A stretch of DNA of 64,000 nucleotides from an uncultured Bacteroidales bacterium (GTDB taxonomy: Bacteria > Bacteroidota > Bacteroidia > Bacteroidales > UBA10428): contig CAWEGX010000003.1 in NCBI GenBank assembly GCA_963808745.1, forward strand, positions 466,197 to 530,196, in the 5' to 3' direction. Positions 14,432 through 60,202 of the stretch are shown in pieces. The translations under genes were made by a program, and so were the position numbers. The notes under the pieces are model-generated. The model ran no database searches. It had not been told where the DNA came from and saw only the letters and a program-made list of their open reading frames with translations. Numbering within the stretch: the first letter of the stretch is position 1; the number at the start of each line of letters is the position of its first letter.

Positions 14432-14445
14432 TTGTTCATCTTTTT

Positions 14446-14888: not shown

Positions 14889-14901
14889 CTCATTTTCTTC
14901 G

Positions 14902-14975: not shown

Positions 14976-15156
14976 ATCCTGTTTTCTGACCAGTTTTGCA
15001 CCTATGCAGGTGCGGTATGTTGATCAGGGACGCAAAGATATAATTTTTGGGTTAATTAGAAAAAAAAGTTGCAAATGCTGTTCAATTTTATGGCTGAAAT
15101 CAATCATGGATTGTTATTCGATTGTAAATTGGTACCTGTTATTTAAATCTGCCACC

Positions 15157-15393: not shown

Positions 15394-15556
15394 AAGGAGC
15401 CTCATCTAATGGATGTTTTTAATTGGTAAACCTGGAGGAAACAGCCCGATTCAGGAATAATGCCTTTCCCTATAATGATGAGGGTTTTTCCTATAAGGAT
15501 GAACTGGCCTTCTTTCCCGGTGACCTGGCCCAGAAAGCGCTGAAGGAAATCTATCG

Positions 15557-15847: not shown

Positions 15848-15898
15848 GACGCAACGGTTTCATTATATTTAGCATCTATTTAGCACAACCTGCAAATC

Positions 15899-16684: not shown

Positions 16685-17270
16685 AAATAATCAATGCGAT
16701 CTGGTTTTTACTGTTTGTTGTCCTATTGGCGGCTGTGTTGGCGATCCCGACCTGCACAGGCCGATTTTTGTCCGTGATAAAAAATACCCTGATCTGCCCC
16801 AGTATTCCGAATGGGGTTATAATACATTTGGCGCCTATTTAAATGATGATGTTTTCGTATCCGGTGATTATCTATGGGAACCTGCCAGTGTAACACCGGC
16901 TGAAACAGCCATGGTACTTTCATTCCATGGAGAAAAAAGAACCAAAGGCAAGGATACTACCGATATGATCATGTACTTTAATATCACCCGTTCTTCACCC
17001 CGGTATGATCAGTTTTTATTCTCCCTGAATGATTCGGTAATAGATTTAGCGGCAACTTCAAACCAGGTTTTGATAATGTCTGACACAACATTGTACCCTG
17101 TTACTATTAATAATGGAGAATTGCATTTTAAGAGAGTGCAGAACCTGGTAGTTGATATGCAACCTATGGAGACTATCTTCTCCGGTACCTTCGAATTTCA
17201 GGGTATAATGAATGGAAATCCGGTAAGCGTTACATTGGGAAGATTTGATGTGGGGGTGGGGTATTATTAG
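16681..17270 (+). CDS. Putative lipoprotein, unknown function, with a frameshift inside the signal peptide (~16727)
   Basis: The ATG at 16681 overlaps the upstream stop (ATGA) and encodes 'MKIINAIWFLLFVVLL'. The long ORF in the adjacent frame continues '..GGCVGDPDLHRPIF', so a 1-nt shift restores a lipobox. Confidence 0.5.
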
Positions 17271-17460
17271 GCTAAAGGCTAAAGGCTGTTAGGCTGAAGA
17301 CTGTCAGGAATGCCTCTTCGTTGCTTGCAGTCGTTAAATCCCGGGTACTATATTCAGAATTCGGCGTTCGGTGTTCTCCCGATAAATCGGGACAGGCTTT
17401 GTTCGATATTATTTGTGATGACACAATAACACTGAACAAGGAACACCGAATTTCGAATTA
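17268..17460. repeat. Intergenic repeat mosaic A
   Basis: 'taggctaaaggctaaaggctgttaggctgaagactg' starts at the TAG stop. It is followed by a 'gcagtcgt' unit, a small hairpin 'cccgataaatcggg' and a long-range inverted repeat 'ttcggtgttc' (17367) / 'gaacaccgaa' (17441). Confidence 0.85.
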
Positions 17461-20440: not shown

Positions 20441-21288
20441 TTATTGTAATAATTTTTCCGGGATTTTGTCGATGGAGGTGATTTGAATGTTCCGGATATA
20501 CATCTCGGAGCCTTCGGATTCAAACTGGATCTTTCCCTTTGTAAGGGGGACTTCAGAGCTTCCTTCCAGCTGGCGGGAATTACGGAGGATCATATTGACA
20601 ACGCCATTCATCACATGAACACTGGTGCCGCCAAAACAGTATAAATCGATTGTATTCCATTCACCTGTTGGTTTTTCAGCATCGGGGAATTTTTTGCAGT
20701 TTCTGCCCAACGGGCTTACTGTGCTGAAGGTACGGGATTCTCCATCCTTGCTGTACACAAAAGTACTGTCATTCTCCTTCTTCGAGTTCACATCAAAAAT
20801 GGCACCGGCACAGGCCCAGTAATCACCGCAATCGCCTTCCTCGATCTGAAATTCGTGAGAGCGCATCCAGAATCCTCCATCTGCGCCTTGTGGTCCAACT
20901 GCATGATACATTAAGCCTCCATCCCTTTTTTGGGCTTTCATGGGTGGCCATTGTAACTGACCCCATTTAAACTGGAACTGCAAATGATAGTTTTCAAATT
21001 CCTGAAGTGTATTCATTCCTCCGAAATGTTCTCCCGATATCCGGATCACATTTTCGCCACTGATCACGGCCACACCAAATACTTTTAATGGATCAACATT
21101 CAGGCCAACAGGCACGGTATCCCATTTATTCAAAAGGGTGTCATATTTTGGCCCGAGGTAGGTTTCCCATCCTGAAAGATCCCTGCCATTAAAAAGGGAT
21201 TGCCATTTTTGATTATCGGCAGTCCGGTTTTACAGCCTGCCAGGATAACCAGGGCAAGGACAAGGATGAAATGGAGCTTGCAGCGCAT
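20441..21288 (-). CDS. DUF1080 (3-keto-disaccharide hydrolase-like) lipoprotein, one frameshift (~21225)
   Basis: The ATG at 21288 encodes 'MRCKLHFILVLALVILAGC'. The adjacent frame reads 'DNQKWQSLFNGRDLSGWETYLGPKYDTLLNKWDTV', in frame with ORF 20441..21133. The C-terminus is 'GKIQFESEGSEMYIRNIQI'. Confidence 0.7.
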
Positions 21289-21356
21289 GATAGGGGAGTA
21301 TGTATTAATAATACACCGGATGGTTAAGTAGCTAATTTACACATTTTTCTCCATCC

Positions 21357-21424
21357 TACAATACCGTATGCGCTCTGCCAATTACAGATCTGCTATGTCC
21401 CTTGTCCCTCAGTCCCTTGTCCCT
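21357..21424. repeat. Intergenic repeat mosaic B
   Basis: The 'gtcccttgtccctcagtcccttgtccctt' array abuts the FtsX stop codon. The module 'tacaataccgtatgcgctctgcc' recurs at 28286. Confidence 0.8.
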
Positions 21425-23795
21425 TCATTCATGCTTTAGCGTCTCCGCCGGATTAGTCCTTATCGCCCTTATGGTCTGGTAACTGATGGCGGCCATGGCG
21501 ACCACCACGGTTATGGCAGCAGAAACGCCAAATATCCATGCATTCAGCCTGGTATGATAACTGTAATTTTTCAGGAAATGCGACAGCAGATACCAGGTTA
21601 TCGGGACGGAAATTACTGTTGCCAGCACCAGCAACTGCAAAAACTGCCAGGTAAAAAGATGGAATATAGTTAACAGCAGGTGCACCCAACGCCTTTCGTA
21701 TACCCACTTCACGGGTTTTTTGTTCCACTGTGTAGGTAGCCATTCCAAACAGGCCAATGGCGGCAATGAGAATGGCAAAGATGGCAAAGTAATTCATCAA
21801 TGTGCCCATTCTTTCTTCGGTCCTGTACATGTTGTCAAAATCCTGGTCCACAAAATGATAGTCAAATGGATAGGCGGGCATGATTCTCTTCCAGGCTTTT
21901 TCCAGCTGCTTCATTGTTTCAGTGAGGTTTCCCGGGTTAACCCGTATATACATGTAATTCCAGAACTGGGGCCCCCACATGGAGATGGCCAGGGGTTCTA
22001 TTTTATTGTGAAGCGACTGGAAATTGAAATCTTTCATAACACCGACGATGGTCCCGTAAGATCCAAATCTCAGCGAGGCTCCCACTGCATTATCCAGACC
22101 CATTATTTTTTCCATCGTTTCGTTAATGATAAAATTGGCTGTTGTATCATGAGATACGTCACCGGGATAGGCTTTTGAGAATGTGCGACCCGCCTTCATT
22201 TCGATTCCCATCGTTTCAACATAATCAAAATCAACTCCACTCATGCTGACAAGAATATCCGTTTCCGGCGACTTTCCTTCCCAAAAGGCGTTGTCGGAAT
22301 TACTTCCAATCTGTTGCGGCTGGTCCAAACCTGCAGTGATCGATTTTACAACCGGTTCATGCAGAAGTTCCTCCTTGATCATGGGATAGGAATTTTTCAG
22401 ATCGCCCCGGAGCGGGAGATAGAGCAGATTCTCTTTGTCATACCCAAGCTTTTGACTTTGCATAAGATGAAGCTGGCGGTATATAACGATGGTACCGGCA
22501 ATAAGCATAATACTCAAGCCAAACTGGATTGTAACCGAAATTTTCCGGAAAGTGATACCTGTTGTGCCGGTATTGAAATTTCCTTTCAATGTGTGGATAG
22601 GTCTGAAACCGGAAAGAACCATGGCCGGATAGGTGCCGGCAAGCAATCCCGTGAGAATGGTGATCACCACCATACCCAGAACAAATCGCATGGTTATCAG
22701 GTCAGCCAGGTGAAATACTTTTCCTGAAATACTGTTAAATGGTGATAGCAGCAATAAAACAAGGACAAATGCAATTACCATTGAAAGAAATGCCATCAGA
22801 AGCGATTCGCCAAAAAACTGGAACAGCACATTATTACGATGCGCACCATTTACCTTGCGCAATCCGATTTCCTTTGCACGGGCAATTGACCGGGCGGTAC
22901 TCAGGTTCATGAAGTTTATGCAGGCAATGATGAGCACAAGGATCGCAATGGATGCAAAAATCCATACATTGAGTATCGCTCCCGGCTTATGACCGAAACC
23001 CCAGTAACTGTACAAGTGCATACGCGTAAGCGGTGCAATTACAAAATCAGTTGTGCTTTGGGGATTATGCTGCCTTGCAATCGCGGTCAGCTTGGCATTC
23101 ACCTTCGAAGTTTCCACATTCGGCCTGAGCATCACATAAGTCGTGATTGAATTGTTACCCCATTGATCGGAATACCATTGTGATTTTTTCATGTAATCGA
23201 AGGGAATCAGAAAATCCTGGTCAATGGAGCTGTTGGATGGCATTTTTTTCATTACACCGGTAACCTGGAAGATCTCTTTCGTATTAACAGTAAATGTTTT
23301 ACCTATAGGATCTTCTTTGCCGAAATATTTGGATGCCATCTCATCACTGATAACCACTGAGCCTGGCTGAGCCAGGGCTTTTTTTGGATTACCCTTAATC
23401 AGCTCAAAGGAAAACATGTCAAAAAATGAGGAATCTACGGCAGATACCTTTTCTTCATAAAATGATCTTTCATTCCTTGTAAACAGAAAACTACCTGCCT
23501 GGGTGATCCTGCATGCTTCCCTGATCTCAGGTATCTGATCGCGCCAGACCGGGCCTGAAGGCCAGGGTGTTACCTGCACATGATACACACCATTGCTGTA
23601 GTGCTGATCTTCTTCCACACGGTAAATCAATTCAGCGTTCTTATGAAACCTGTCAAAGTCCAGCTCATCTGCCACCCAGAGGAAGATCAGCATGGCACAG
23701 GCCAGTCCGATGGATAATCCCGCCATATTCATGAATGACACACTGAAATGACGTACGATATTCCTGAATGCGATAACCAGGTAATTTCTGAACAT
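21425..23795 (-). CDS. FtsX/MacB-like ABC transporter permease (~790 aa), one frameshift near the 3' end (~21700-21790)
   Basis: 'MFRNYLVIAFRNIVRH' is typical of this Bacteroidota permease family, which carries two FtsX domains. The true C-terminus '...YQTIRAIRTNPAETLKHE*' lies in overlapping ORF 21425..21787. Confidence 0.75.
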
Positions 23796-26769: not shown

Positions 26770-26875
26770 TTAATTGCTTTCTGATATGGTTACCACCGAA
26801 AGGTACAATGGTTACATCATTTTTCCAGAAATATTTTAGGGAGATGTTATGATGGCGTTATGGGGAGGATGGGAA

Positions 26876-27078
26876 GGCTGTTAGGCTACTAGGCTGCTAG
26901 GCTGCTAGGCTTCTAGGCTACTAGGTACTAGGCTACTTGGCTACCAGGCCTCTAAGCTACCACGGAAAAAGTCTTCGAAGTTCGAAGTTCGATGAATACT
27001 GAAATTTCTTAGCGGAATTCACGCCATTCACCATTCACCATTCACTTTTTCGACTGCAAAACTGCACGACTGCAGAAC
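26876..27078. repeat. Intergenic repeat mosaic C
   Basis: About 10 units of 'ctaggctN' (26876-26961), then 'ttcgaagttcgaagttcga' (26974-26992), 'ccattcaccattcaccattcac' (27024-27045) and 'cgactgcaaaactgcacgactgcagaac'. Confidence 0.9.
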
Positions 27079-27081
27079 TAA

Positions 27082-27564
27082 CTAAAAACGGTATGTCAGG
27101 CTCAGGCCCTGCCGGTTGGGCGCACATATTACACCCAGGGAAAGATTATCCAATTTGTGCCGATAACTTTTAACCTTGTAACTACCAATGCTGCTCAGGG
27201 TTATTCCCCCGGCCAGCAAGCCGATCCCAAGGGAAAGAAAAATCACTCCCTCTGCTGCCTGCAGGTCGTATTTATCCTGGTTGGGAATAGTATATCCATA
27301 GCCTGTATTCCAGTAAGCATTTGGTATGTTGGCTAACAGGACAATACCTGCGATTAAAGAACCACCGCCGAAACCGGTCATGATTAATCCTCCCCTTCGC
27401 ATTTTCGTATAGGTAATGATTTTGCTTTTGTATAGTTGTCTGTATTTATCTTGCCCGGTTACAGAAGTCTCTATTTGTCCCGTTACGGGTTCTTCTACTT
27501 GTCCGGTTACAGAATTCACACCCAGAACCATGAAAATCAGGAATAACCAGGCTTTCTTTTTCAT
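27082..27564 (-). CDS. Hypothetical secreted/membrane protein
   Basis: Signal peptide, three 'VTGQ.E' peptide repeats, Gly-rich hydrophobic segments, and the ending 'LSLTYRF'. Confidence 0.5.
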   Translation of the reverse strand: MKKKAWLFLIFMVLGVNSVTGQVEEPVTGQIETSVTGQDKYRQLYKSKIITYTKMRRGGLIMTGFGGGSLIAGIVLLANIPNAYWNTGYGYTIPNQDKYDLQAAEGVIFLSLGIGLLAGGITLSSIGSYKVKSYRHKLDNLSLGVICAPNRQGLSLTYRF

Positions 27565-27613: not shown

Positions 27614-27641
27614 GTCCCTTGTCCCTAGTCCCTTGTCCCTA
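27614..27641. repeat. Intergenic repeat mosaic D (GGGAC-type array, reverse orientation)
   Basis: 'gtcccttgtccctagtcccttgtcccta'. It contains the last four codons and the stop of the 27625..28242 gene. Confidence 0.85.
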
Positions 27642-28285: not shown

Positions 28286-28406
28286 TACAATACCATATGC
28301 GCTCCGCGCAATCGTAAATCGTAAATCGTAAATCGTAAATTCCTACCGACGGCAAATCCCTACAGGATTTTCCTGCTCGTCCCTAGTCCCCAGTCCCTAG
28401 TCCCTT
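28286..28406. repeat. Intergenic repeat mosaic E
   Basis: 'tacaataccatatgcgctccgcgc', then 4x 'aatcgta' (28310-28340), the module 'tcctaccgacggcaaatccctacaggattttcc', and 'gtccctagtccccagtccctagtccct' (28379-28406). Confidence 0.9.
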
Positions 28407-28408: not shown

Positions 28409-31052
28409 TTACATTCCCAGCCAAAAACTCATCTTTACCATAAATACGTTAGTCGGTGCTCCTCCAAAAAGGTCACCCAGGTTATCACTTAGCGAGGAAT
28501 AATAAATATTGTCACGGTTATGCTGATTGTTCTCCCACACCAGGTAAATTGTTGAACCCGGGCGGTATTCCCATCGTGCCACAAGATTTGACCGGAATTC
28601 CCTGAAACTGAAATCCGGATTGTTGAATGAATAGGTGTCTGGTCCGTCATTCACCTGATAGGAATTCGTGGACTCGTCGAAGCTGATTTCAGATTCCGTA
28701 AAAGAATGATACCGGTCATTTATGTCATCTGCATTGGCATCGAGGGTTTTCTTGAAATCATCGTATATACCGGTTGAAATAAAGGGACTCCCATAATACT
28801 GAATGGAGATATCCGGCGTGATATTATAATTAAGGCGCAAGGTGACGCTATAGGTTTGCTGTTTGATATGTGCCAGAATGTATCGCATATCGGTACTCGT
28901 CTGTTTCTGAGTCACATAAATGAAATTGTCGATATTGTGATCATAGGCCATTTGGCCGGTGATATAAAAATGATTTCCAAGTCTGAAACTGAGTGATGGT
29001 TTTATCACATATCGGCGGGATACACCATCCGTGCTCACGGAACTTATATTATTCAATCCGAATATTACACGATCTGATTTATTTGTATTAAACGAGATGA
29101 TGTTATCCCAGTAAGGTGAAAGACGAAAAGCCGGTCCTCCGCGCAGCAGGCGGGTGGACAATTCTGCAAATGTATATGATTCGGTCATGGAAAGATCCCA
29201 CCGGTTGGTGAACTGTGCTGTAAATGCCGCGTTTACATCATTGTGGGTGCTCACTCCGCCGTAGTTCCAGGCATTCATCTGTCCAAGGGTAAGGGTATAA
29301 TTTCGTAATATGCCGCGAGGTTCGGTCTGGCGGATGCCCAGTTTGGTGAGATTCTGGATAAGATCAGCCATCAGCAGGTAGCCAACATCGTTCATGTCAA
29401 AGCCGGGTGACCACCAGCTTACCTTTTCAGAAAAAATAAAGCGCTTGTTACCAAGCCGGCCTGCACTCAGATAACCGCCGGTACCCGAAAGTGACCTTCG
29501 GCTGCTGTCAACACCCAGGTAACCTGAAGCATCCGGTCGCTGGTAATAGTGCAGGGGATTACGCTGAAGTGACCACTATGGCTTCTTCCTTTCCATTAAT
29601 ATAGCTCATAATACCCTTAAAATCAAGAAAATATTCGCGGTCTTTTGAATATTGAAGCAGGTCGATGCCGGCAGTATAGGCATTCTTATTGAGGTATTCC
29701 AGGTGGGGAACGTCGGAAAAACGGTTGGTGGAGGTAAACATGGTACCAAACTGGGTATTGCCCTTGTTGGCAATTTTCTGAACGCGGGCTACCAGGAAAT
29801 TGGTGAGGGGTTCAACTACGGGATTGGTCTCCACCCCGTCCGTTGTAACTTTTGCCGTTTCTTTCTGCGTGGTGCTTTGCAGGATACCCACGGATATCCC
29901 GTTACGGGTTGTTCCTGTCAGCTTGATTGCATTGATGATGTTGGTGAATTCAGGTTCTTTTGAAAAAGAGGTTACATTGTCCACTTCAGGCGAATAGGAG
30001 GGAGCATGCCCGATCCGGCGGGAATAGAACATCATGTTATTGTCGGGTGAAAAATCAAAAATATGTTTTCCTTCCAGGAAAAAGGGCCTTTTCTCTTCGT
30101 AAAAAGTCTCAAATGCGGTAAGGTTCATGACGGAAGGATCCGCCTCGATCTGTCCGAAATCCGGATTTATGGTGACATCCATTGTAAAATCACCGACACC
30201 TATTTTGCTGTCAATACCGGCATTCCCATTCCACCTGACTCCATTGGAATAAGGGCTGCCCTCGATCTGGGGTTCCATGGTCATCTTGGCGGCTACATAG
30301 GGAAGAAACTCAATGAGCCTTGGTTTTTGTATGCCCTGCAGCCCGTACATCGTGCCGAATGAATAAACATGGCCGCTGTTTTTGCGGGGAATAAGGCTCC
30401 ATTGGTCCACCTCCTGAAGTCGGCGGACTATGCGGCGCACATGCAATCCCCATACCATCCCGCTGTCGCTTTGATTATAACGCAGCTGGTTAAGCGGGAT
30501 CCTGAATTCGGCGATCCAGGAGGAATCATTCACAGATGTTTTTCCTTCCCAGACTGCGTTCCAGTTGAGGTTAACCGACAGGTTATCGGTGACGATGAGA
30601 TCGGTCTTGTTGCCACCCGCGTTGATATTGAATTCTGCTGCTGCCCGGCTGTCGTGATAAGAGTCAAAGGCAACACTGATGAGATCACCGATGGAGTTGT
30701 CATCGCGGTTTCCCACGAAGCGGTTTATCTTATCAGGTTCAGGATCCCAGGCGCGAAGGGCAAAATAGATATTTTTATCATCGAACAGTATCTTGATCTT
30801 TGTCGGGTAGGTGGGCTGTGCCCGTTCAACCGGTGTATTCTGCAGAAATTTCTGTGACCAGTTGCCTTCATTCTTCCAGCAGTCATCATCGAGTTTGCCA
30901 TCAATGACCGGGGGCTTTCCCTGTAATTTAACCGTATGATAGGACCGTTTGTAAGCCTGGTCAAAGGGAATGAGCGTATCGGCGCTTTGCGCCAGGGAAG
31001 GGGGAGTGGTTAGTGAAAGCAGCAGGAACAATATAAATACCAATCTCATCAT
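28409..31052 (-). CDS. CBM9-like + DUF5916 outer-membrane protein (~880 aa), one frameshift (~29565)
   Basis: The N-terminus has a signal peptide and 'IDGKLDDDCWKNEGNWSQKFLQNTPVERAQPTYPTKIKILFDDKNIYFALRAWD'. The 29396-29560 gap translates in the frame of ORF 28409..29395 ('LQRNPLHYYQRPDASGYLGVDSS...FDMNDVGYLLMADL'). It ends 'VFMVKMSFWLGM'. Confidence 0.7.
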
Positions 31053-31150
31053 GAAAAATTATAGGAATATCTTAAATGGAGCATAAATGTATAGAAGTTT
31101 GTTCAAGTTTATTCGCAAAGTACAATTTTTAGATGGCAATGAATAAACTT

Positions 31151-31317
31151 CGGTTCTGAGTAGTTTTGCAATTGGTTTGTAGAGACAAGGCAATGCCTTG
31201 TCTGTACGATTTCATCCAATATTGAAGTCAAGAAGTCGTGCAGTCTTCGAACCAGGGAGGATTACCGATTACTGATTACCGATTACCGATTACCGATTAC
31301 CGATTACCGATTACCGA
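31151..31317. repeat. Intergenic repeat mosaic F
   Basis: 'cggttctgagtagttttgcaattgg', the 40-nt hairpin element (31178-31217), 'gaagtcaagaagtcgtgcagtcttcgaa', and about 8 units of 'gattacc' (31260-31317). Confidence 0.9.
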
Positions 31318-33147: not shown

Positions 33148-33378
33148 GTTCTGCGGTTATGCAGTTGGAGTAATGGTGAATGGTGAATGGTGAATGCTAT
33201 AGATACTTACAAATGATTCAAAATTTGTAGTATGGTTTGGCTCTTGAGTCATTCATTCTTGCAAATTTTCAAATCATCAAATCACCTAATCCCTAAAGTC
33301 CAAAGCCTTCGTACAATTTAAATAAATATCCTTAACTTTACATAACGAGTTACTTCCATTCACCATTCACCATTCACC
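33148..33378. repeat. Intergenic repeat mosaic G
   Basis: 'gttctgcggttatgcagttgg', then 'aatggtgaatggtgaatggtgaatg' (33172-33196) and its inverted partner 'ccattcaccattcaccattcacc' (33356-33378), which ends 8 nt before the rsgA ATG. Confidence 0.9.
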
Positions 33379-33386: not shown

Positions 33387-34451
33387 ATGAACACACTCGA
33401 ACAATACGGCTGGAACGATTTTTTCAGCCAATACAATACACTGAACGGGAATGAGGACTTTGTTGCAGGCAGGGTTGTTTCAGTTAAAGGTTTTAAATAT
33501 CATCTGATACTGGAATCGGGAGAAACTGAAGCAGAGTTATCCGGAAAATTGTTATTCGGTACCGATCACGAGCTTCTCCCGAAAGTCGGTGACTGGGTGT
33601 TCTGCCTGAAATACGACACAATGGGATATATCACCGAGGTATTTCCCAGGTTAAACAGGCTGGCCAGAAAAAATCCGGATAAAACCTCGGAAAAGCAAAT
33701 TCTTGCAGCCAATATTGACTATGCCTTAATTGTGCAGGGACTCGACCGGGAATTTAACCTGATGCGTCTTGACCGGTATCTTGTGCAGATCATAGCCAAC
33801 GGAATCTCTCCCATTATCGTGCTAAACAAGGCCGACCTGATAAGCGACCGGGAGGTATACCGCAACGAGGTCCTGAGACTTGGAAAAGAATGTCCTGTTT
33901 ATTTCTGCAGCACTTACGACGGTTCAGGCCTGGAAGAATTGCTCACCCAGGCCCTGCTTCCGGCAAAAACCTCTATTATGGTTGGTTCATCAGGGGTTGG
34001 CAAAAGTTCGCTGCTGAATTCATTCAGGAAATCAGCAGCCAGAGAAACCGGTCCGTTAAGTTATTCCACCAATAAGGGAATGCATGTGACGACAACACGT
34101 GATCTGTTCAGGCTCCCCAATGGCAGCCTGATCATTGACACACCCGGCATGAGGGAATTTGGAATCGCCCTGGAAGACGGACTGCAGACAGACGGGCTGT
34201 TTCCTTCCATTGATGAATTTTCGCGCAAATGCAGGTATGCCGATTGCAGCCATACCAATGAGGAAGGATGTGCAGTAATTGAGGCTTTTGAAAACCAGCT
34301 CCTTGATCCGGCGGTATATAATAGTTACATCAAACTGATGAAGGAGCAAAGGCGATTTGAGATCCGGGCAGGTGAAAGTAAAAGGCTGGGAAAGCAGTTC
34401 GGCAAAATGATCCGCGAGGCAAAGGATTTCCGGAACAGATATAAGTATTAG
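33387..34451 (+). CDS. rsgA: Ribosome small-subunit-dependent GTPase A
   Basis: Circularly permuted GTPase motifs 'VLNKADL' and 'VGSSGVGKSSLLNS'. The C-terminal zinc motif is 'CRYADCSHTNEEGCAV'. Confidence 0.9.
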   Translation: MNTLEQYGWNDFFSQYNTLNGNEDFVAGRVVSVKGFKYHLILESGETEAELSGKLLFGTDHELLPKVGDWVFCLKYDTMGYITEVFPRLNRLARKNPDKTSEKQILAANIDYALIVQGLDREFNLMRLDRYLVQIIANGISPIIVLNKADLISDREVYRNEVLRLGKECPVYFCSTYDGSGLEELLTQALLPAKTSIMVGSSGVGKSSLLNSFRKSAARETGPLSYSTNKGMHVTTTRDLFRLPNGSLIIDTPGMREFGIALEDGLQTDGLFPSIDEFSRKCRYADCSHTNEEGCAVIEAFENQLLDPAVYNSYIKLMKEQRRFEIRAGESKRLGKQFGKMIREAKDFRNRYKY

Positions 34452-34696
34452 TTCTGCGGTTCTGCGGTTCTGTGATTGGTCTGTAGAGACAAGGCATTGC
34501 CTTGTCTGTACGATTTCATCCAATCATTGCAGTCTTGCAGTCGTGTAGTCAATGAAAGTCCCCTTCGGAGGGGGCAGGGGGAGGATTGACGTAATCCACC
34601 CCCTACCCCCGCCAGCGGCGGAAATCATCCCTTGAAGCCTAACAGCCTATAGCACATATAGCAGCCTAATCCCCTAAGCCTCCAGCCTATCAGCCT
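34449..34696. repeat. Intergenic repeat mosaic H
   Basis: 'tagttctgcggttctgcggttctgtg', the 40-nt hairpin element (34482-34521), 'attgcagtcttgcagtcgtgtagtc', a GC-rich palindromic island (34558-34612), and reverse TAGGCT-type units (34634-34696) overlapping the regulator's stop. Confidence 0.9.
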
Positions 34697-37600
34697 TTCT
34701 TAATCAGAATCAGCTCTTTCCATCCTTCAGCCGAGTGAAGGTATTTTTTTCTTTGTTGCATTACTTCCCTGACCTTATTTCTAAAGGTCCAGCAGGTTTC
34801 TTTCCGAAGTGAAATGAGATGTGACAGTTCGTCAACGGTTAAATTTCTTCCGCTACTGACAAGGTACAGAATGTAAAATGCCTTCGTGATGGGAAATTTT
34901 ATGCGGTAAAAAATAGTGTTGCTTGTCAGGGGTTCGCGATATCCGCATTGCTTGCACCGGCGCAGAAATGTCCCCATTAATACTGTATAGCCTGTATGGT
35001 GACAATTTTTGCAAACGAAGGGAAGGGGGCTTTTAAGTTCCCGAAGCAAGGCAAGACATGATTCATCATCGGGATAAATCTCACGGAATTCTTCATACGT
35101 AACACGTTTTTGCATGACCCTCGCTTTTGAAAGTTCCTGCACGTTTTGTGTAAGATCCTCATTTTTACGCTGAAGAAGGTAATTCATCCTGCGGATCTCT
35201 CCGCCCTGTCTTTCTATTTCGTCTTTCTGAAATTCAAGGTGTATATTCTTCCGGATGATTTCAGTATTTGCATTTTGCAGGAAAGTCGCCTGCTCCAGTA
35301 TCTGCTCTTTCTGCTGAACCACCTCATCAGTTCGCTGCCTGACTTTTGTTTCGAGAATGATGTTTTGGCTTTTGATGCTGCTTACGCGAATCGCATGCAG
35401 GGTAAGAGCTGAGCCAAGAATAAAGCTTATTAGAAGGAGCCTGAACCACAAGGTTCTCCAAAAGGGCGGTTTTATGAGTATTTTAAGGATTGTGCCTTCG
35501 GTGTTCCAAATTCCATCGTTGTTTGATGCCTGAACCCTGAAAATATAATCTCCGGGTGGAAGATTGGTATAGCTGGCAGACCTGCGGTCTTCATTGTCAA
35601 TCCATGCCTTATCAAAACCTTCGAGAAAATATTTATACCGGCATTTTGTGGAGGATGAAAAATTCAATGCCGTGAATTCAAAGGTCACAGCATTCTGTCT
35701 GTAATTAAGGATGATGGACGAGGTTTCCAAAAGACTTTTTTGAAGCGGTGATTTTTCACCAATTAAAACCGGCTTGTTTAGGATCTTTAAACCGGTAAGA
35801 TAAATGGCAGGAAGATAAGAATTGTCATGAATGCTATCGGGATAAAAAATGTTGAGGCCATTGATGCCACCGAAAATAATTTCTCCGGTGGACATTTTCG
35901 CAAAGGCCCTTGGATTGAATTGATTTCCCTGCAATCCATCTGATTTATCGTATAGCTTAATGGTTTCTTTTTTCGGATTAAGTACGGCAATACCAAGGTA
36001 GGTGCTGATCCATAAGTTGCCATGATGGTCTTCTATTATTCCACAGATCACATTACTGGGCAAACCGTTCCTTGTTGTATATATTTTAAAGTTACCTGTT
36101 TCGGGATTGAAACGGTTCAGGCCGCCATAGGTCCCTATCCAGAGATCTCTGGAAGTAGTCTCTACAATGCAGGTTATCTCATTGCTGCTGATTGAATTTG
36201 GTCTGGCCGGATCATGCAGATACCTGATAAAGGTCCGGTTTCCGTCAATGAACCGGTTTAATCCTTCATAGGTGCCCACCCAAAGAGTCCCGTTTCCATC
36301 CTGCAAAATATCCGTAACATAGTTATTACTCAGGCTGTTTGAATCCAATTCCTCTTTTACGAAATGTACAATCTGGTTTTTTCCCTGATTGAATTGGTTT
36401 AATCCGCCACCATTGGTTCCTATCCATAATAAACCCTCTCTGTCTTCATAAATGCTGAAAACCGAGTTATTTGAAAGGCTGTTTGAATGGGCAGGTTTAT
36501 GACGGTAATGAATAAACTGCTTGCGTGCAGGATCCCATCGATCGATACCATTGTCCATATATCCTACCCAGATATTACCCTGATGGTCACGACACAGCGC
36601 ACTGACAACATGATGACCCGGAGAGGCACTATTGCCCGGATCGGGCATAAATACCCTGAATTTACCTGATTTTCTGTTCATTACGTTAATACCACCCTCA
36701 TCTGTGCCGATCCAGATATCCTGTCCATCAGGCAGAATGGAAAGAACAGAACTTTTACTGAGACTGTTCGGATTTAATGCATTGGCACGGATAATCTCGA
36801 TCTTTTTCCGGCTGTTGTCAGAAAAATTCAATCCGCCACCAATCGTCCCCACCCATAGATTTTTCTGTTTATCTGTAAATACCGACATCACGGAATTCTT
36901 GCTAAGCGTATTGTAGTCCGTTTCCAGATGCCTGTAATGAGTGAAAAACTGTGTATGAATATTGAACAATGATAATCCCCCGCCCAGGGTTCCAATCCAA
37001 AGATGCAATTTGTCCGCTTTCTGAATTGTTTTTACCCGCTTTTGAGAAAGAGCCCCCGGTTTAAATTCCTCTACGAGATAGGGGATTTGTACAAAGCGGT
37101 TCTCCCGGATGATATACCTGATCATCCCATGTTCTTCCGTTCCCAGCCATAAATCATTTCCCAGCAGGCATAATGCATTTACTTCATTATCAGGTAATTG
37201 TGAGTTATTTATATTAAAACTGGTAAACTGCCGGTGAACGGGATCAAATTTAACCAGGCCCTGTGACCCGGTACCGATCCACAGAATGCCGGCACTATCC
37301 TCAACAATTGAATTGACGTAATTATCACTAATACTGTTCGGATCATTTGGATTATTGGAATAAAGAAGCCGGGTGTTATCCTCTGTATTGAAGCGGATCA
37401 GTCCTTCGTTTGTTCCTATCCATATCTTTCCGGAATGGTCCTCCATCATGGTACGGATTACATTCAGTTTCAGTCTTAGATCGACAAACGTAAAACTCTC
37501 GTTTTCAGAATTATAGCGATAAAGTCCACCCCCACGGGTTCCGATCCAAAGTACACCTCTGGAATCAGAAAACAGCACCGATATTGTATTGTTCTGCAGG

Positions 37601-37842
37601 GCTCCGGGAATGGGACGGGACAGTTTAAAAACCTGGAAGAATTTCCCGTCAAAACGGTTTAGTCCGTCCGATGTTCCGATCCAGATATAGCCATATCGAT
37701 CCTGATTAATGGCAAAGATTGTATTATCTGAAATTCCCTGGTCAGTATTGTATGTCTCAAACTGGAGGAATCGCTGCGCGTAAATATGAAAAAAGGGAAT
37801 CTGAATGAGTAACCAGAAAAGAAAGGGCTTTTTCATGCGCAT
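34690..37842 (-). CDS. Transmembrane one-component regulator: 14-blade beta-propeller + Y_Y_Y sensor, TM, coiled coil, IS1595-type transposase zinc-ribbon/HTH domain
   Basis: There are 14 'W(I/V)GT..G(L/I)..(F/Y)' propeller blades, and the Y_Y_Y motif is 'YKYFLEGFDKAWID...YTNLPPGDYIFRV'. 'WFRLLLISFILGSALTLHAI' is the TM segment, followed by a ~90-aa heptad-rich linker. The last 138 aa, 'EEFREIYPDDESCLALLRELKSPLPFVCKNCHHTGY...RRCKQCGYREPLTSNTIFYRIKFPITKAFYILYLVSS...TCWTFRNKVREVM', match the N-terminal DNA-binding region of IS1595 transposases. There is no DDE domain, kinase or receiver. Confidence 0.75.
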   Translation of the reverse strand: MRMKKPFLFWLLIQIPFFHIYAQRFLQFETYNTDQGISDNTIFAINQDRYGYIWIGTSDGLNRFDGKFFQVFKLSRPIPGALQNNTISVLFSDSRGVLWIGTRGGGLYRYNSENESFTFVDLRLKLNVIRTMMEDHSGKIWIGTNEGLIRFNTEDNTRLLYSNNPNDPNSISDNYVNSIVEDSAGILWIGTGSQGLVKFDPVHRQFTSFNINNSQLPDNEVNALCLLGNDLWLGTEEHGMIRYIIRENRFVQIPYLVEEFKPGALSQKRVKTIQKADKLHLWIGTLGGGLSLFNIHTQFFTHYRHLETDYNTLSKNSVMSVFTDKQKNLWVGTIGGGLNFSDNSRKKIEIIRANALNPNSLSKSSVLSILPDGQDIWIGTDEGGINVMNRKSGKFRVFMPDPGNSASPGHHVVSALCRDHQGNIWVGYMDNGIDRWDPARKQFIHYRHKPAHSNSLSNNSVFSIYEDREGLLWIGTNGGGLNQFNQGKNQIVHFVKEELDSNSLSNNYVTDILQDGNGTLWVGTYEGLNRFIDGNRTFIRYLHDPARPNSISSNEITCIVETTSRDLWIGTYGGLNRFNPETGNFKIYTTRNGLPSNVICGIIEDHHGNLWISTYLGIAVLNPKKETIKLYDKSDGLQGNQFNPRAFAKMSTGEIIFGGINGLNIFYPDSIHDNSYLPAIYLTGLKILNKPVLIGEKSPLQKSLLETSSIILNYRQNAVTFEFTALNFSSSTKCRYKYFLEGFDKAWIDNEDRRSASYTNLPPGDYIFRVQASNNDGIWNTEGTILKILIKPPFWRTLWFRLLLISFILGSALTLHAIRVSSIKSQNIILETKVRQRTDEVVQQKEQILEQATFLQNANTEIIRKNIHLEFQKDEIERQGGEIRRMNYLLQRKNEDLTQNVQELSKARVMQKRVTYEEFREIYPDDESCLALLRELKSPLPFVCKNCHHTGYTVLMGTFLRRCKQCGYREPLTSNTIFYRIKFPITKAFYILYLVSSGRNLTVDELSHLISLRKETCWTFRNKVREVMQQRKKYLHSAEGWKELILIKKG

Positions 37843-53240: not shown

Positions 53241-53558
53241 ATGGATACTGGATGCTGGATGCTGGATACTGGATGCTGGATGCTGGATACTGGATGCTGG
53301 ATACTGGATGCTGGATGCTGGATACTGGATGCTGGATACTGGATGCTGATGAGGAATTTTGAATTATGACATGTGGAATGGGACTGAAGACTGCACTACT
53401 GCAAGACTGCGTTTTTCATAATAAATATTGGAAATCGTACAGACAAGGCATTGCCTTGTCTCTACAACGTTTTTCCCTTTACCGAATACCGATCACTGTC
53501 ACCGATACCGATCACCGATCACCGATTACCGAATACCGATTACTGATTACCGATTACC
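53241..53558. repeat. Intergenic repeat mosaic I
   Basis: About 15 units of 'tggatRc' (53241-53351), 'ggactgaagactgcactactgcaagactgcg', the hairpin element in reverse orientation (53431-53466), and 'accgat'-type heptamers (53480-53558) running into the UDG-like gene. Confidence 0.9.
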
Positions 53559-54379: not shown

Positions 54380-55648
54380 ATGACTATTCAATTTTCATCA
54401 ATATTGGTTAAGATAGTTGTGGTCCTGTTGCTCATCCTGCCAACAATTGATATGAACATCATGGGACAGGATAAACCCGTAAACTATGATGAATCAGCCG
54501 TTCCGGCATATACCCTGCCTGATCCCCTGCGTTTTTCCAACGGGGACGAGGTTAAGGATACAGTGGAGTGGATGAACAAGCGAAGACCTGAAATACTGTC
54601 CCTGTTTGAAACCGAAATGTTTGGCAAAACGCCTGACAGGAAAATCAAGGCCAGGTATACAATTGTATCAGCAGATACAATGGCACTGAATGGAATGGCC
54701 ATCCGAAAACAGGTGAGAATTGAATTTCCATCCGAACCCGGTGCTCCGTCCCTGATGCTGCTGATCTTTCTGCCCAAATCCCAGAAGCCCGTGCCCGTAT
54801 TTCTTGGGCTCAATTTTGATGGGAATCATACTATTGTTGATGATACGGGTATTATAGTGTCAGAGGCCTGGCAGGCATCCGCCCATGCCCGCGGAGAAGA
54901 TTCGCTCAGCTGGCCGGTCAAAAATATTGTTGGTCACGGATTTGCGCTGGCCACAATTTACTATGGGGAAATTGTTGAAGATGAAAATAACGGATTCAGA
55001 AATGGAATTCAACCTGTATTTTATTCTCCGGGACAGACATCGCCAAAGCCCGACGAATGGGGCGCCATCGGTGCATGGGCATGGGGTTTGAGCCGTGCTA
55101 TGGACTATCTTGAGAATGATAAGCTGTTAGATCCAAAAAAGGTGGTTGTTTTCGGACATTCGCGGTTGGGCAAGACCGCCTTATGGGCCGGTGCTCAGGA
55201 CAGCCGGTTTGCCCTTATAATATCGAACAATTCGGGATGCGGCGGTGCTGCTTTATCTAAACGAATCTTCGGCGAAACTGTGGGATCTATCAATGCTATG
55301 TTTCCCCATTGGTTTTGCGGAAACTTCAAAAAGTATAACGATAAGGAAATGGATCTGCCGATGGATCAGCACATGCTCATTGCCCTCATCGCACCAAGGC
55401 CTGTTTATGTTACCAGCGCACAGGATGACCAATGGGCCGATCCGAAAGGAGAATTCCTGGGAGTAGTGAATGCAAATCCGGTTTACCGTCTTTTTGGCAA
55501 ACAAGGTTTACCCGTGTCGGTAATGCCTCCGTTGAACAGCCCGGTTATGGGTGACCTCGGTTATCATATCCGAACCGGCCCGCATGCATTAACATACTAT
55601 GACTGGGACAGATTTATGGAGTTTGCACGGAAACATTTTAAAAACTAG
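54380..55648 (+). CDS. CE15-like glucuronoyl esterase / acetylxylan-esterase-like serine hydrolase
   Basis: Signal anchor, then 'YDESAVPAYTLPDPLRFSNGDEV...WMNKRRPEILSLFETEMFG'. The nucleophile motif is 'GHSRLGKTALWAGAQD'. Confidence 0.65.
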   Translation: MTIQFSSILVKIVVVLLLILPTIDMNIMGQDKPVNYDESAVPAYTLPDPLRFSNGDEVKDTVEWMNKRRPEILSLFETEMFGKTPDRKIKARYTIVSADTMALNGMAIRKQVRIEFPSEPGAPSLMLLIFLPKSQKPVPVFLGLNFDGNHTIVDDTGIIVSEAWQASAHARGEDSLSWPVKNIVGHGFALATIYYGEIVEDENNGFRNGIQPVFYSPGQTSPKPDEWGAIGAWAWGLSRAMDYLENDKLLDPKKVVVFGHSRLGKTALWAGAQDSRFALIISNNSGCGGAALSKRIFGETVGSINAMFPHWFCGNFKKYNDKEMDLPMDQHMLIALIAPRPVYVTSAQDDQWADPKGEFLGVVNANPVYRLFGKQGLPVSVMPPLNSPVMGDLGYHIRTGPHALTYYDWDRFMEFARKHFKN

Positions 55649-55869
55649 GCTGTTAGGTTATTAGGCTACTAGACTACTAGGCTACTAGGCTATTAGGCTG
55701 TAGCCTATAGGCTGTTAGGCTGTTAGGCTGTAGGCCAATAGGGGCTTAGGGGCTTAGGGGTTTAGGTTTAGGCTTCATCAGCATATTATCACATTAGCAC
55801 ATTAGCACATTTATTTCCCCTTTTAGTTTTTAACTATCAACTACAATTCAACTATCAACTAACAACTAA
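55646..55869. repeat. Intergenic repeat mosaic J
   Basis: 'taggctgt/taggttat/taggctac...' octamers start at the TAG stop. They are followed by 'cttaggggcttaggggtttaggtttagg', 'cacattagcacattagcacat' (55790-55810) and 'aactatcaactacaattcaactatcaactaacaactaa' (55832-55869), which ends 8 nt before the next ATG. Confidence 0.9.
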
Positions 55870-58230: not shown

Positions 58231-58947
58231 ATGAAAACGATTTTGCACCGGGCAGGTACCCGTGGGCATGCCAGCCACGGCTGGCTTGAAAGTTACCATA
58301 CATTCAGTTTTGCCGATTATTTCGATCCGGGGCGCATTCATTTTGGCGCCCTCCGGGTTTTAAATGATGATGATGTAGCGGGAGGAATGGGTTTTGGAAA
58401 ACATCCCCATGATAATATGGAAATCGTTACAATCATGCTCGAGGGTGAATTACGGCACGAAGACAGCATGGGACATAGCGAGATATTGCGAAAGGATGAG
58501 GTACAGGCAATGTCAGCCGGAACAGGTATTTTCCATTCAGAAGTGAATAACCTGCGCGACAAGCCTGCCAGACTGCTTCAGATATGGGTGTTTCCGGAAA
58601 GACGAAATATTACACCCCGGTATGAACAAAGGGCCTTTGATCCGCAGGAACGGAAAAACACCTGGCAGTTGCTGGTTGGGCCTAACCCTCCTGATGGTGC
58701 CCTCGACATTAAGCAGCAATCCTGGTTTTCACGGATTGACCTCGAAAAGGGAAGCCGGGTGGATTATACCCTGCATAACAAGGACAATGGGGTGTACCTT
58801 TTCATGATCAGCGGGAATACAACAATTGACAATGATCTGAAACTTGGCTACCGCGATGGTGCCGGCCTTTCCGAAACAGATAAGGTGAATATCCTTGCAG
58901 ATGAGAAATCGGAAGTGCTGGCGATTGAGGTGCCTATGATTGAGTAG
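58231..58947 (+). CDS. Pirin family protein
   Basis: 'HPHDNMEIVTIMLEGELRHEDSMG' is the cupin metal-binding region. 238 aa. Confidence 0.85.
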   Translation: MKTILHRAGTRGHASHGWLESYHTFSFADYFDPGRIHFGALRVLNDDDVAGGMGFGKHPHDNMEIVTIMLEGELRHEDSMGHSEILRKDEVQAMSAGTGIFHSEVNNLRDKPARLLQIWVFPERRNITPRYEQRAFDPQERKNTWQLLVGPNPPDGALDIKQQSWFSRIDLEKGSRVDYTLHNKDNGVYLFMISGNTTIDNDLKLGYRDGAGLSETDKVNILADEKSEVLAIEVPMIE

Positions 58948-59146
58948 GGACGAGGGACTGGGGACGAGGGACGAGGAAGAAAGTTCTGCAGTTCTGCAGT
59001 TATGCAGTTGCAGTTTTGCTGCTGCGTCAGCACATTTCATACATTAGCATTAGCACATTAGCACATTAGCACATTAGCACTTAAAACCTCAAACCTCAAA
59101 TCTCAAATTCATAATTCATCATTTATAATTCATAATTCATAATTCC
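58945..59146. repeat. Intergenic repeat mosaic K (five array families in ~200 nt)
   Basis: 'tagggacgagggactggggacgagggacgagg', 'gttctgcagttctgcagttatgcagttgcagtt', 'cacattag' x~5 (59031-59080), 'aacctcaaacctcaaatctcaaa', and 'ttcataattcatcatttataattcataattcataattcc'. Confidence 0.9.
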
Positions 59147-59186: not shown

Positions 59187-60059
59187 ATGCCCGAAAAGCG
59201 TACATTCATAAAAACCACCGAAAAGCCTTCTGTTTACAGTCATTTGGAAAAGATGAGCGTTCGTGAGCTGCTTGTCAGTATGAATAATGAAGACAAACAG
59301 GTTCCCCTGGCAGTTGAAAAGGCGCTCCCTCAAATTGAAAAGCTTGTGGAAGCCATTGTGGATTGCATGCTGGCGGGCGGACGTCTTTTTTATATCGGTG
59401 CCGGTACCAGCGGCAGACTTGGCATTCTTGATGCCAGTGAATGTCCTCCTACATATGGCGTGGAACAAGGACTGGTGGTTGGTTTAATGGCGGGCGGAGA
59501 TTCTGCCATCCGTAAAGCAGTGGAGCATGCAGAGGACGATACAAACCAGTGCTGGAAGGATCTCCAGTCATACAATATTCAGAACAGCGATGTGGTGATA
59601 GGCATTGCGGCCAGCGGGACAACGCCTTATGTGATAGGCGGGGTCACCAGTTGCCGTGAACATGGGATCATTACCGGTTGCATCACATGCAACTGCGGAT
59701 CTCCCCTGGCAGCCAATGTGGATTTTCCGGTGGAAGTGGATGCAGGTCCGGAATTTGTCACCGGAAGCACACGCATGAAATGCGGAACAGTTCAAAAACT
59801 TGTGCTGAATATGATCTCTACATCGGTGATGATCAGGCTGGGCAGGGTAGAGGATAATAAAATGGTGAATATGCAACTCACCAATAACAAGCTTGTAGAT
59901 CGGGGTACCCGCATGGTGATGGAGCAAATGAAAATCTCTGATTATGAGGAAGCGAAGGCTCTCCTGATGAAATATGGTAGTGTGAAAAAGGCTATTTTAG
60001 GGACAAGGGACAAGGGACTAGGGACTGGGCAGTTCGGAAAATCCCGGTTTAAGGATTGA
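59187..60059 (+). CDS. murQ: N-acetylmuramic acid 6-phosphate etherase
   Basis: SIS domain 'GGRLFYIGAGTSGRLGILDASECPPTYG' and 'VVIGIAASGTTPYV..'. The last ~19 codons are translated repeat array. Confidence 0.85.
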   Translation: MPEKRTFIKTTEKPSVYSHLEKMSVRELLVSMNNEDKQVPLAVEKALPQIEKLVEAIVDCMLAGGRLFYIGAGTSGRLGILDASECPPTYGVEQGLVVGLMAGGDSAIRKAVEHAEDDTNQCWKDLQSYNIQNSDVVIGIAASGTTPYVIGGVTSCREHGIITGCITCNCGSPLAANVDFPVEVDAGPEFVTGSTRMKCGTVQKLVLNMISTSVMIRLGRVEDNKMVNMQLTNNKLVDRGTRMVMEQMKISDYEEAKALLMKYGSVKKAILGTRDKGLGTGQFGKSRFKD

Positions 60060-60202
60060 TTGTCGGTAGAGGAAGAATTTACGATTTACGATTTACGATT
60101 GGAAGGCATCGACTCGTCACCGACCAATACCGAAGCTCCCTGAAAGCTAAACCCTAAACCCCTAAACCTGAACCCTAAGCCCCTAAGCCCCTAAGCCCCT
60201 AA
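59998..60202. repeat. Intergenic repeat mosaic L
   Basis: 'tagggacaagggacaagggactagggactggg', the module 'ggaaaatcccggtttaaggattgattgtcggtagagga', 'atttacgatttacgatttacgatt' (60077-60100), and 'aaaccctaaacccctaaacctgaaccctaagcccctaagcccctaagcccctaac' (60148-60202). Confidence 0.9.

Follow-up and report, generated by a model that had tools for sequence, protein, structure and literature searches.

The window analysed here is a 64,000-nt stretch of DNA from an uncultured Bacteroidales bacterium (contig CAWEGX010000003.1, positions 466,197 to 530,196; G+C about 43%). Between 17 and 62 kb it carries about 30 tandem arrays with a period of 7 or 8 nt and 2.7-15 copies, detected with Tandem Repeats Finder (TRF). 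Our results showed that these arrays are anchored to stop codons, that they turn over at the same gene ends in related genomes while replacing the last codons of the genes, and that they share a strand polarity. They are probably bacterial long simple-sequence repeats made of slippage-prone 7/8-nt units, with a gene-side edge set by selection on the protein. This is a known kind of element in a new host and with new unit families, not a new kind.

Stop-codon anchoring and replacement of protein C-termini

The arrays lie nearly all outside conserved coding sequence and belong to more than 12 unit families, including TAGGCTNN, AGGGACN, GGTAATC, TAGGGGCT, GTTCTGCG/AGTTCTGC, TTGCAGTC, CATTAGCA, TACGATT, TGAATGG/CCATTCA, AACTATC, AATTCAT, AAACCTC, and TGGATGC. 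In the window, an array overlaps the stop codon or lies within 3 nt of it at 13 of the 13 stop-facing ends of the 12 array-bearing spacers. When arrays were redistributed at random inside each spacer (100,000 trials), on average 1.4 stop ends, and at most 7, had an array within 3 nt (P<1e-5). Start-facing ends showed no anchoring, as a gap of 10 nt or less was found in 2 of 11 cases against 2.7 expected, and the gaps were 8, 9, 41 ... 436 nt. Because all 13 stop ends are abutted, against 1.4 under the null model, and start ends are not enriched, the anchoring is real and specific to stops. This agrees with the initial annotation, which had noted from the letters alone that arrays start at, abut, or contain the stop codons of twelve genes. 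The explanation that arrays merely fill short spacers was rejected, since only 8-86% of a spacer is covered, yet all arrays are at the stop side.

The individual junctions were verified as well. The stop is the first TAG of the array in the CE15 gene (55646-55648, opening TAGGCTGT), the pirin gene (58945-58947, opening (T)AGGGACG), and the open reading frame (ORF) 16629-17270 (17268). In four other genes the array begins 0-3 nt past the stop: an AGGGACA unit abuts the TGA of FtsX, TTCTGCGG follows the TAG of rsgA (34449-34451), TAGGCTGG follows the TGA of the regulator gene (34690-34692), and in the DUF5916 gene the TAA (28409-28411) is followed by AGA and then AGGGACT, 3 nt past the stop. The true C-terminal ORF of FtsX is 21425-21787, with the tail ..NPAETLKHE* and a frameshift upstream in the gene. 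The stop lies within the array at 27625 (TAG), 31304 (TAA), 53547 (TAA), and 60183 (TAG), and the MurQ ORF reads through AGGGACA x4 (59999-60025) to 60059. A thirteenth stop-abutted gene, 27082-27564, which the initial annotation did not contain, has its TAG 2 nt from a TTGCAGTN array. On the 5' side, arrays finish just before the ATG of rsgA (8 nt; 33378 vs 33387) and of the racemase gene (9 nt; 55868 vs 55878). TAG is the stop in 7 of the 13 array-abutted genes and in 5 of the 45 others in the window (Fisher p=0.003), which is consistent with arrays donating stops.

For comparison, four syntenic loci from other samples were found via CE15 homologues at 75-90%; their nucleotide identity to the window is 88% (L121), 85.5% (L124), 84.6% (L123), and 81% (L122). 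At the same gene end, the arrays of the window and its relatives expand, contract, switch unit family, appear, and vanish. The last 2-20 codons are overwritten by arrays, which also provide the new stop, and the conserved part of each protein is untouched. These comparisons support the proposal that arrays expand until they meet coding constraint, as family and length differ and only the last codons are replaced.

The UDG gene illustrates this well. In L122 it ends ..VLGKQ* (TTA GGT AAA CAA TAA) with no array, while in the window it ends ..VLGNR* inside GGTAATC x11. In L123 and L124 the protein ends ..ILGA* with a bare 1.5-unit TTAGGGGCTTAG, and about 5 units are found at the same junction in L121, so that TTAGGGGC at this gene varies from 1.5 to about 5 units between relatives. 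These tails therefore indicate that arrays grow from a proto-repeat that includes the last codons of the gene. Similarly, the beta-lactamase ends ..FGNPDE* in L122 and ..FGNR* followed by GGTAATC x8 in the window. The 380-aa protein ends ..NPVINSASAI* in L122, ..NPVLNVRGLGA* in the window (TAGGGGCT type), and ..NPVMNIRLKAEGF in L121 (TAGGCTGA type), the L121 tail closing with ..MNIRLKAEGF; the arrays of the window and L121 start at the same codon. In the CBM9 gene, AGGGACN x4 in the window corresponds to a diverged GTGACGA array in the same register in L121.

The AGGGACN-encoded tail of MurQ (..GTRDKG(Q/L)GT..) is read in the same frame in the window, L121, L123, and L124, with four different endings, and in L122 a C-to-T change in one unit makes a TAA (..FRDKG*). 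Because the frame is shared by four assemblies and the TAA of L122 derives from a C-to-T change, the MurQ read-through is, judged from the sequence, real and not an assembly error.

The CE15 gene of L123 and L124 ends ..KHF* (CAC TTT TAG|TTTTTCACTAACAAC). A relic matching this stop region (20/22) lies 175 nt downstream of the present stop in the window, and likewise in L121; therefore, arrays appear to have been inserted just before the ancestral TAG, with the new stop two codons later. The insertion of about 175 nt has a TTTT(A) repeat at both junctions, which is compatible with a duplication origin or a target-site duplication. In the pirin gene, the TAG is followed by AGGGACN x4 in the window, L121, and L124, whereas in L122 the array that comes next abuts it, so that the loci differ by a clean 28-nt (4x7) indel. 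Downstream of pirin, the AGTTCTGC array varies from 3.5 to 9.8 units among the window, L122, and L124 and is degenerate in L121, and GTTCTGCG after rsgA has 2.8 units in the window and 4 in L122. Thus, copy number and sequence vary at the same locus between related genomes, here between species, and the arrays consist of head-to-tail units in the 5-11-nt class that are longer than chance (TRF), both as known for prokaryotic long simple-sequence repeats.

Two further observations concern gene ends in the relatives. In L123 (14320-14430), the pirin stop TAG reads GAG, and the ORF runs on for 35 codons through the AGGGACN and downstream arrays (273 vs 238 aa); the stop may have been truly lost, or the base may be a sequencing error. 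In L122 (3003-3172), the annotated 5' end of a 258-aa gene upstream of rsgA coincides in part with a AGTTTTGC array of about 21 units, and the called N-terminus of this gene may be repeat-encoded or mis-called.

Strand polarity and the four-unit format

Regardless of how the flanking genes are oriented, the left arrays of every array-bearing spacer in the window have more G than C, and the right arrays more C than G, on the top strand. On the sense strand, the 40 nt past stops with arrays hold 13.5 G and 5.6 C, with G>C in 13/13, compared with 7.3 G and 7.3 C past stops without arrays. The 40 nt before starts with arrays hold 3.6 G and 9.2 C, with C>G in 10/11, compared with 5.7 G and 7.1 C before starts without arrays. 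Array-bearing and array-free flanks differ at both stops (p=0.0004) and starts (p=0.03). The polarity is a property of the arrays and not of untranslated regions (UTRs) generally, because array-free stop flanks have equal G and C, and general UTR composition was rejected as its cause on the same ground. The polarity was upheld in 24 of 26 arrays within 10 nt of a gene end (table read by eye). Automated nearest-gene assignment was noisy for interior arrays and high-GC loci, and only gene-abutting arrays gave a clean signal.

The unit AGGGACN is informative here, as its stop content is equal on both strands (a CTAG palindrome if N=T, otherwise none). It is sense-oriented in 5/5 window arrays, with the G-rich strand on the coding strand and overlapping the stop or at most 50 bp downstream. 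AGGGACN x3 was scanned in species-representative genomes, giving 120 loci in many phyla, including Acidobacteriota, Gemmatimonadota, Bacteroidales, Planctomycetota, cyanobacteria, and others. Orientation was scored from a frame open for at least 100 codons that ends at or in the array. At 64 loci the long ORF ended at the array on the G-rich strand alone and at 17 on the antisense strand alone (p=1.4e-7). The gaps clustered at -2, -9, -16, and -23, where a TAG of the array serves as stop, and at 0 to +7. For TAGGCTNN x3 in metagenome contigs, 22 cases were sense and 5 antisense (p=0.0015), and of 29 sense stops 10 were a TAG of the array. In GGTAATC, stops occur just on the sense strand, as the initial annotation had stated. 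The view that stop-bearing units set the orientation failed, since most TAG/TAA units have stops on both strands and AGGGACN is sense-biased though stop-symmetric.

The number of AGGGACN units is also biased. Exactly four units are present in 5/5 arrays of the window and in 11/13 in the five related genomes, and the cross-phylum counts were 26 loci with three units, 45 with four, 17 with five, and 13 with six, the mode being four although loci were ascertained at three or more. At the pirin stop the GGG tracts are kept and the N position varies, next to the AGTTCTGC array of 3.5-9.8 units. The arrays at 21396, 27614, 28379, 58945, and 59999 have one G3 run per unit and contain the four-tract pattern G3N1-7 x4, and all five fold as a predicted three-tetrad G-quadruplex (G4) in ViennaRNA (gquad), with a predicted energy of -8.4 kcal/mol compared with -1.3 to -3.7 without G4. 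The TAGGCTNN, GGTAATC, GTTCTGCG, and other families lack such G3 runs. Canonical intrinsic terminators were not enriched (10 vs 7.0±2.6 expected; 15 vs 13.8±4.0). The TAGGCTNN array at the CE15 stop, the region flagged initially, folds marginally better than shuffles (z=-2.1). In the convergent spacer of rsgA and the regulator gene, the arrays lie between each stop and central hairpins outside the arrays, from which the structure stems. Taken together, the polarity and the format of four units point to a possible further constraint that is strand-specific, most likely G4 or other structure in 3' untranslated RNA or non-template DNA.

Inverted pairs of the same unit family were observed between convergent genes elsewhere (L116 806-962; L010 4975-5041; L088 1917-2060; L083 1878-2031). 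Each copy is sense to its own gene, e.g., GAGTTAG x11 facing ACTCCTA x9, and such pairs would let a read-through transcript fold into a long hairpin. Of the window arrays with at least five units, 10/10 are more regular in the gene-proximal half (the 5' half of the G-rich strand). Polar growth as a general rule was rejected, as the corresponding counts were 102 vs 103 across 230 arrays from all loci.

Origin of the arrays and relation to known repeats

If the arrays are long simple-sequence repeats bounded by selection on the protein, they would be born by replication slippage at short proto-repeats at or beside the stop, such as TTAGGGGCTTAG in L123 and L124 or a GGTAAAC turning into GGTAATC xN, and they might additionally spread within small composite modules. 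Where an array overruns the native stop, the TAG or TAA of a unit becomes the new stop, and where the unit has no in-frame stop the ORF continues, as in MurQ. The array edge would coincide with the end of conserved coding sequence because purifying selection on the protein fixes it there.

Several points weigh against this reading. Only 13 of the 43 stop flanks with a spacer of at least 40 nt carry arrays and 30 are array-free; because these flanks and the first 17 kb, with its long spacers, are array-free, arrays do not simply fill all free DNA. A purely neutral model of filling until constrained does not predict polarity or a fixed number of four units. Slippage itself was not seen, and copy numbers were compared between species. 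Beyond the window the orientation bias keeps its direction but is less marked, with 13 vs 5 among the relatives and, for units other than AGGGACN, 18 vs 9 at other low-GC loci. Finally, the assemblies are of the error-prone long-read type, and frames near homopolymers, such as CATTTTAAAAAC before the CE15 stop, are possibly off by one base.

A tentative alternative, compatible with slippage and selection, is that the arrays are selected functional elements of the 3' UTR or of the DNA. G4 (AGGGACN x4, TAGGGGCT) and array hairpins past the stop might shield the 3' end of the mRNA, make transcription pause or terminate, or serve to insulate genes; incoming polymerases would transcribe C-rich, G-poor, Rho-loading RNA, and outgoing polymerases G-rich RNA. 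The conserved four units with intact GGG and variable loop bases, the cross-phylum mode of four, the orientation bias of a stop-symmetric unit, the array-specific polarity at both gene ends, and the same-family inverted pairs in other genomes all argue for such a role, and for related heptamers both transcription and G4 formation in vitro have been shown (Rehm et al., 2015; PMC4692102). However, families are rapidly exchanged, gained, and lost at the same gene end among close relatives, most genes are array-free, and G3 tracts are missing from most families (TAGGCTNN, GGTAATC, GTTCTGCG). There is no surplus of canonical terminators, folding of the TAGGCTNN array is marginal, and Rehm et al. 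found no regulatory role.

It is unlikely, though conceivable, that the arrays travel as cargo in mobile or recombining mosaics, small and non-autonomous, which insert preferentially at gene 3' ends and displace or replace the stop, similar to repetitive extragenic palindromes (REP), bacterial interspersed mosaic elements (BIME), or miniature inverted-repeat transposable elements (MITE). Two composites of about 100 nt (array, hairpin, array) occur in two copies each in the window, with 85% identity over 99 nt (31148-31245 vs 34454-34550) and 78% over 99 nt (28317-28406 vs 60005-60100). In the first, a 37-nt palindrome, GTAGAGACAAGGCAATGCCTTGTCTGTAC, which is present three times, is flanked by GTTCTGCG- and TTGCAGTC-type arrays; the second, at 59999-60100 (+) and 28310-28406 (-), consists of AGGGACN x4, a GAAAATCC..GGATT hairpin, GTCGGTAG, and TACGATT x3-4. 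Dispersed copies thus share sequence beyond the tandem units, as in REP/BIME- or MITE-like elements, and some arrays seem to have spread by module copying because the composites occur twice each and the palindrome three times. The same unit families are also present at unrelated genes in many phyla.

The suggestion of the initial annotation that stop codons are insertion targets fared well in one part: a precise indel and an insertion are found there, namely the 28 nt directly after the pirin TAG (L122 vs the window, L121, and L124) and the roughly 175 nt placed just before the ancestral CE15 TAG, with the relic 175 nt downstream. The machinery is another matter, since no transposase or REP-associated tyrosine transposase (RAYT) was seen among the Pfam matches of the window genes or in the gene tables of L121-L124, in a search that was not exhaustive, and no consistent terminal repeats or target duplications were found at the array modules examined. 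Moreover, some arrays seem to grow from the gene's own end (GGTAAAC to GGTAATC in UDG; TTAGGGGCTTAG with 1.5 units in L123 and L124 and about 5 in L121), and boundaries track reading frame and the point where protein conservation stops, neither of which an integrase acting on DNA can sense.

Rather improbable, in our view, is a single rule for both gene ends, by which the G-rich strand runs 5' to 3' away from the nearest gene and the arrays are orientation-independent transcriptional insulators or the footprint of directional growth at the DNA level. If so, a polymerase reaching a gene from outside, whichever way the gene points, would make C-rich/G-poor, Rho-loading RNA and one moving out of it G-rich or G4 RNA, and protein C-termini would be continually remodelled, with new TAG stops as a by-product.

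Very little speaks for frame-independent translational backstops that catch read-through or frameshifted ribosomes. The arithmetic behind this proposal of the initial annotation is correct, as 7- and 8-nt units with TAG or TAA present a stop in every frame within three units, and the sense-only stops of GGTAATC fit it. But stops in all three frames within 30 nt were found in 3 of 13 array flanks against 3 of 45 others, a difference that falls short of significance (p=0.12); past pirin all three frames stay open, and past FtsX, gene 27082-27564, and rsgA a single frame is closed by a stop. AGGGAC[A/G/C], GTTCTGCG, and TTGCAGTC units carry no stops, MurQ reads at least 20 codons through its array in four genomes, and stops on both strands of most TAG/TAA units leave the orientation unexplained. 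The idea that the arrays or their stop junctions are long-read assembly artefacts, to which the frameshifted genes typical of uncorrected long-read assemblies might point, is scarcely credible, because five assemblies made independently from different samples share orthologous, diverged arrays, isolates such as Zobellella aerophila, Occallatibacter savannae, and Geomonas propionica carry the same families, and the MurQ tail keeps its frame in four assemblies.

The class of long simple-sequence repeats, to which we assign the arrays, includes the cyanobacterial short tandemly repeated repetitive (STRR) heptamers and the G4-forming heptamers known from Xanthomonas and Nostoc. The latter were described by Rehm et al. 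(2015; PMC4692102) as GGGNATC in Xanthomonas and GGGGA(C/T)T in Nostoc; they have one G3-4 tract per unit, form G4 in vitro, strongly prefer four units, and are over-represented in non-coding DNA. On the coding strand, most of these repeats overlap the stop or lie 0-50 bp away from it; irrespective of its orientation, the nearest ORF is located 5' of the G-rich repeat; and length and sequence vary extensively between close relatives, with no function identified (Rehm et al., 2015). The arrays of the window share the G3 tract per 7-nt unit, the four-unit preference, the non-coding location, the coding-strand position at stops with the nearest ORF 5' of the G-rich strand, and the locus variation between relatives. 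They differ in the unit (AGGGACN, also TAGGGGCT) and in the host, a Bacteroidales-type metagenome-assembled genome. Further differences are that G4-type arrays are one of more than 12 co-resident 7-/8-mer families, most without G3 tracts, that the arrays lie far closer to the stop (13/13 within 3 nt), and that replacement of C-terminal codons and stops is documented here by orthologue comparison.

According to the summary of Mrazek et al. (2007) in PMC4679880, long simple-sequence repeats have units of 5-11 nt, predominantly heptamers, and are intergenic and phylogenetically sporadic; in that account, heptamers are attributed to polymerase slippage, and units that are not a multiple of three are excluded from coding DNA. 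Like these repeats and STRR, the window arrays are intergenic tandem units of the 5-11-nt class. Unlike in those surveys, stop anchoring at the nucleotide level, polarity, and C-terminus rewriting are resolved here. STRR heptamers were reportedly described in cyanobacteria by Mazel et al. in 1990, and their units (CCCCAGT and others) differ in sequence from those of the window.

TAACTGA direct repeats are known from Beggiatoaceae, cyanobacteria, and some Bacteroidetes. As they carry stops in all three frames, they can run over stop codons, and 13 sets do so at the gene lying upstream; they are mainly located a few nt upstream of starts, and a binding site for a translational regulator has been proposed (MacGregor, 2015; PMC4679880). 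The same study found spacers with several heptamer families, absent from close relatives, in Gramella forsetii, Aequorivita, and Elizabethkingia. The window arrays resemble TAACTGA repeats in that heptamers overlap stop codons, but TAACTGA is a single family mainly at starts, whereas the window has many families at stops, and no TAACTGA arrays were found in it.

REP/BIME of enterobacteria are dispersed palindromes and short motifs in mosaics, located after stops or between convergent genes in the transcribed 3' region. They are not tandem 7/8-mers, and their spread depends on RAYT transposases. The 37-nt palindrome, embedded three times in array-containing composites, resembles them, whereas the arrays themselves are tandem 7/8-mers and no RAYT was seen in a search that was not exhaustive.

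A 2025 survey showed that bacterial short tandem repeats are preferentially downstream of gene ends and dense in Bacteroidota (PMC12699852). Nucleotide-level anchoring, C-terminus rewriting, and stop donation are unusually clear in the present case. At the level of orthologues, tandem 7/8-mers set the coding boundary, donate stops, and append short neutral tails, and the coarse signal of repeats downstream of bacterial genes may arise because arrays act at gene ends in this manner. For annotation, this means that in such genomes repeats partly encode the 3' ends, C-terminal residues, and apparent read-through ORFs and that these features are unstable, and TAG stops would be over-represented because gene ends are partly repeat-encoded. 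In addition, four-unit AGGGACN and its polarity extend the Xanthomonas/Nostoc pattern to Bacteroidales, Acidobacteriota, Gemmatimonadota, and other phyla, which strengthens the case for a conserved strand-specific constraint on DNA or RNA just past the stop codon.

Features of the window and quality of the assemblies

The coordinates of the arrays and associated features are listed in Table 1. The gene identities were confirmed by Pfam, and the gene repertoire is typical of Bacteroidota (SusC/D-like proteins, Por secretion tails, CE15, DUF5916, CBM9). ORF 16629-17270 had no Pfam match, so that its earlier label as a lipoprotein was not confirmed.

Table 1. Tandem arrays and associated features of the window
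Feature	Position	Strand	Remark
(T)AGGCTAA/AGGCTGTT array	17268-17308	+	First TAG is the stop (17268-17270) of ORF 16629-17270
AGGGACN x4, predicted G4 format	21396-21424	-	Directly 3' of FtsX stop TGA 21425-21427
TAGGCTNN x10	26875-26960	+	Spacer side by sigma-factor gene start; antisense to flanking genes
TGAATGG x3 and TTGCAGTN x3.4	27024-27079	-	TTGCAGTN array 2 nt from stop of gene 27082-27564
AGGGACN x4	27614-27641	-	CBM9 stop TAG 27625-27627 inside; array-encoded tail ..LGTRD*
Composite: AGGGACN x4 (28379-28405), hairpin, TACGATT x4.4 (28310-28340)	28310-28405	-	Second copy at 59999-60100
REP-like 37-nt palindrome GTAGAGACAAGGCAATGCCTTGTCTGTAC	31177-31213	.	Further copies at 34482-34517 and 53431-53467
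GGTAATC x8.3	31260-31317	-	Beta-lactamase stop TAA 31304-31306 inside; tail ..FGNR*
Divergent spacer: TGAATGG x3.6 (33172-33196), TCAAATCA (33269-33296), CCATTCA x3.3 (33356-33378)	33172-33378	.	Ends 8 nt 5' of rsgA ATG
GTTCTGCG x2.8	34451-34472	+	Begins at the G of rsgA stop TAG; kept in L122 (x4)
Degenerate TAGGCTNN array, about 7 units	34630-34689	-	Directly 3' of regulator stop TGA 34690-34692
TGGATGC x15 (53242-53348) and GACTGCAA x3.8 (53382-53410)	53242-53410	+	Spacer interior
GGTAATC x11.7	53479-53558	-	UDG stop TAA 53547-53549 inside; probably grown from native GGTAAAC seen in L122
TAGGCTNN x about 12, then TAGGGGCT x3.5 (flagged region)	55646-55772	+	TAG of the first unit serves as the CE15 stop (55646-55648)
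C-rich, G-poor arrays CATTAGCA x4.5 and AACTATC x5.7	55776-55868	+	End 9 nt 5' of racemase ATG
Putative relic of ancestral CE15 stop region, CTTTTAGTTTTTAACTATCAAC	55820-55841	+	20/22 positions match the actual stop region of L123/L124
Five contiguous arrays: AGGGACN x4, AGTTCTGC x3.5, CATTAGCA x4, AAACCTC x3.4, AATTCAT x5.7	58945-59145	+	After pirin TAG
AGGGACN x4 in MurQ ORF tail (..GTRDKGLGTG..), hairpin, TACGATT x3.4	59999-60100	+	Second copy of composite at 28310-28405
TAGGGGCT/TAGGGTTT-type x7.5	60147-60202	-	Stop TAG 60183-60185 of 380-aa gene inside; tail ..VRGLGA*

The window and L121-L124 all resemble long-read assemblies with frameshifted genes, and frames near homopolymers should be read with caution. 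In the window, the genes split by frameshift are those for a DUF1080-like lipoprotein (20441-21289), FtsX/MacB (21425-23795), and DUF5916 (28409-31052); in the relatives, pirin, RsgA, MurQ, and SusC are split. These look like long-read assembly indels or pseudogenes.

The density of arrays is very uneven along the contig. Positions 1-17000 of the window contain no 7/8-nt array despite spacers of 100-530 nt, and the genes there are ordinary metabolic ones (ADH, GFO/IDH/MocA, Mur ligase, and beta-helix proteins). Rfam covariance models gave no match in the spacers of the window, and a tRNA-Met (CAT) at 14901-14975 (-) is the sole Rfam/ARAGORN match in it. The propeller/Y_Y_Y regulator at 34690-37842 (-) has a C-terminal zinc ribbon of the IS1595-type transposase (residues 924-968), which replaces the usual kinase/AraC output.

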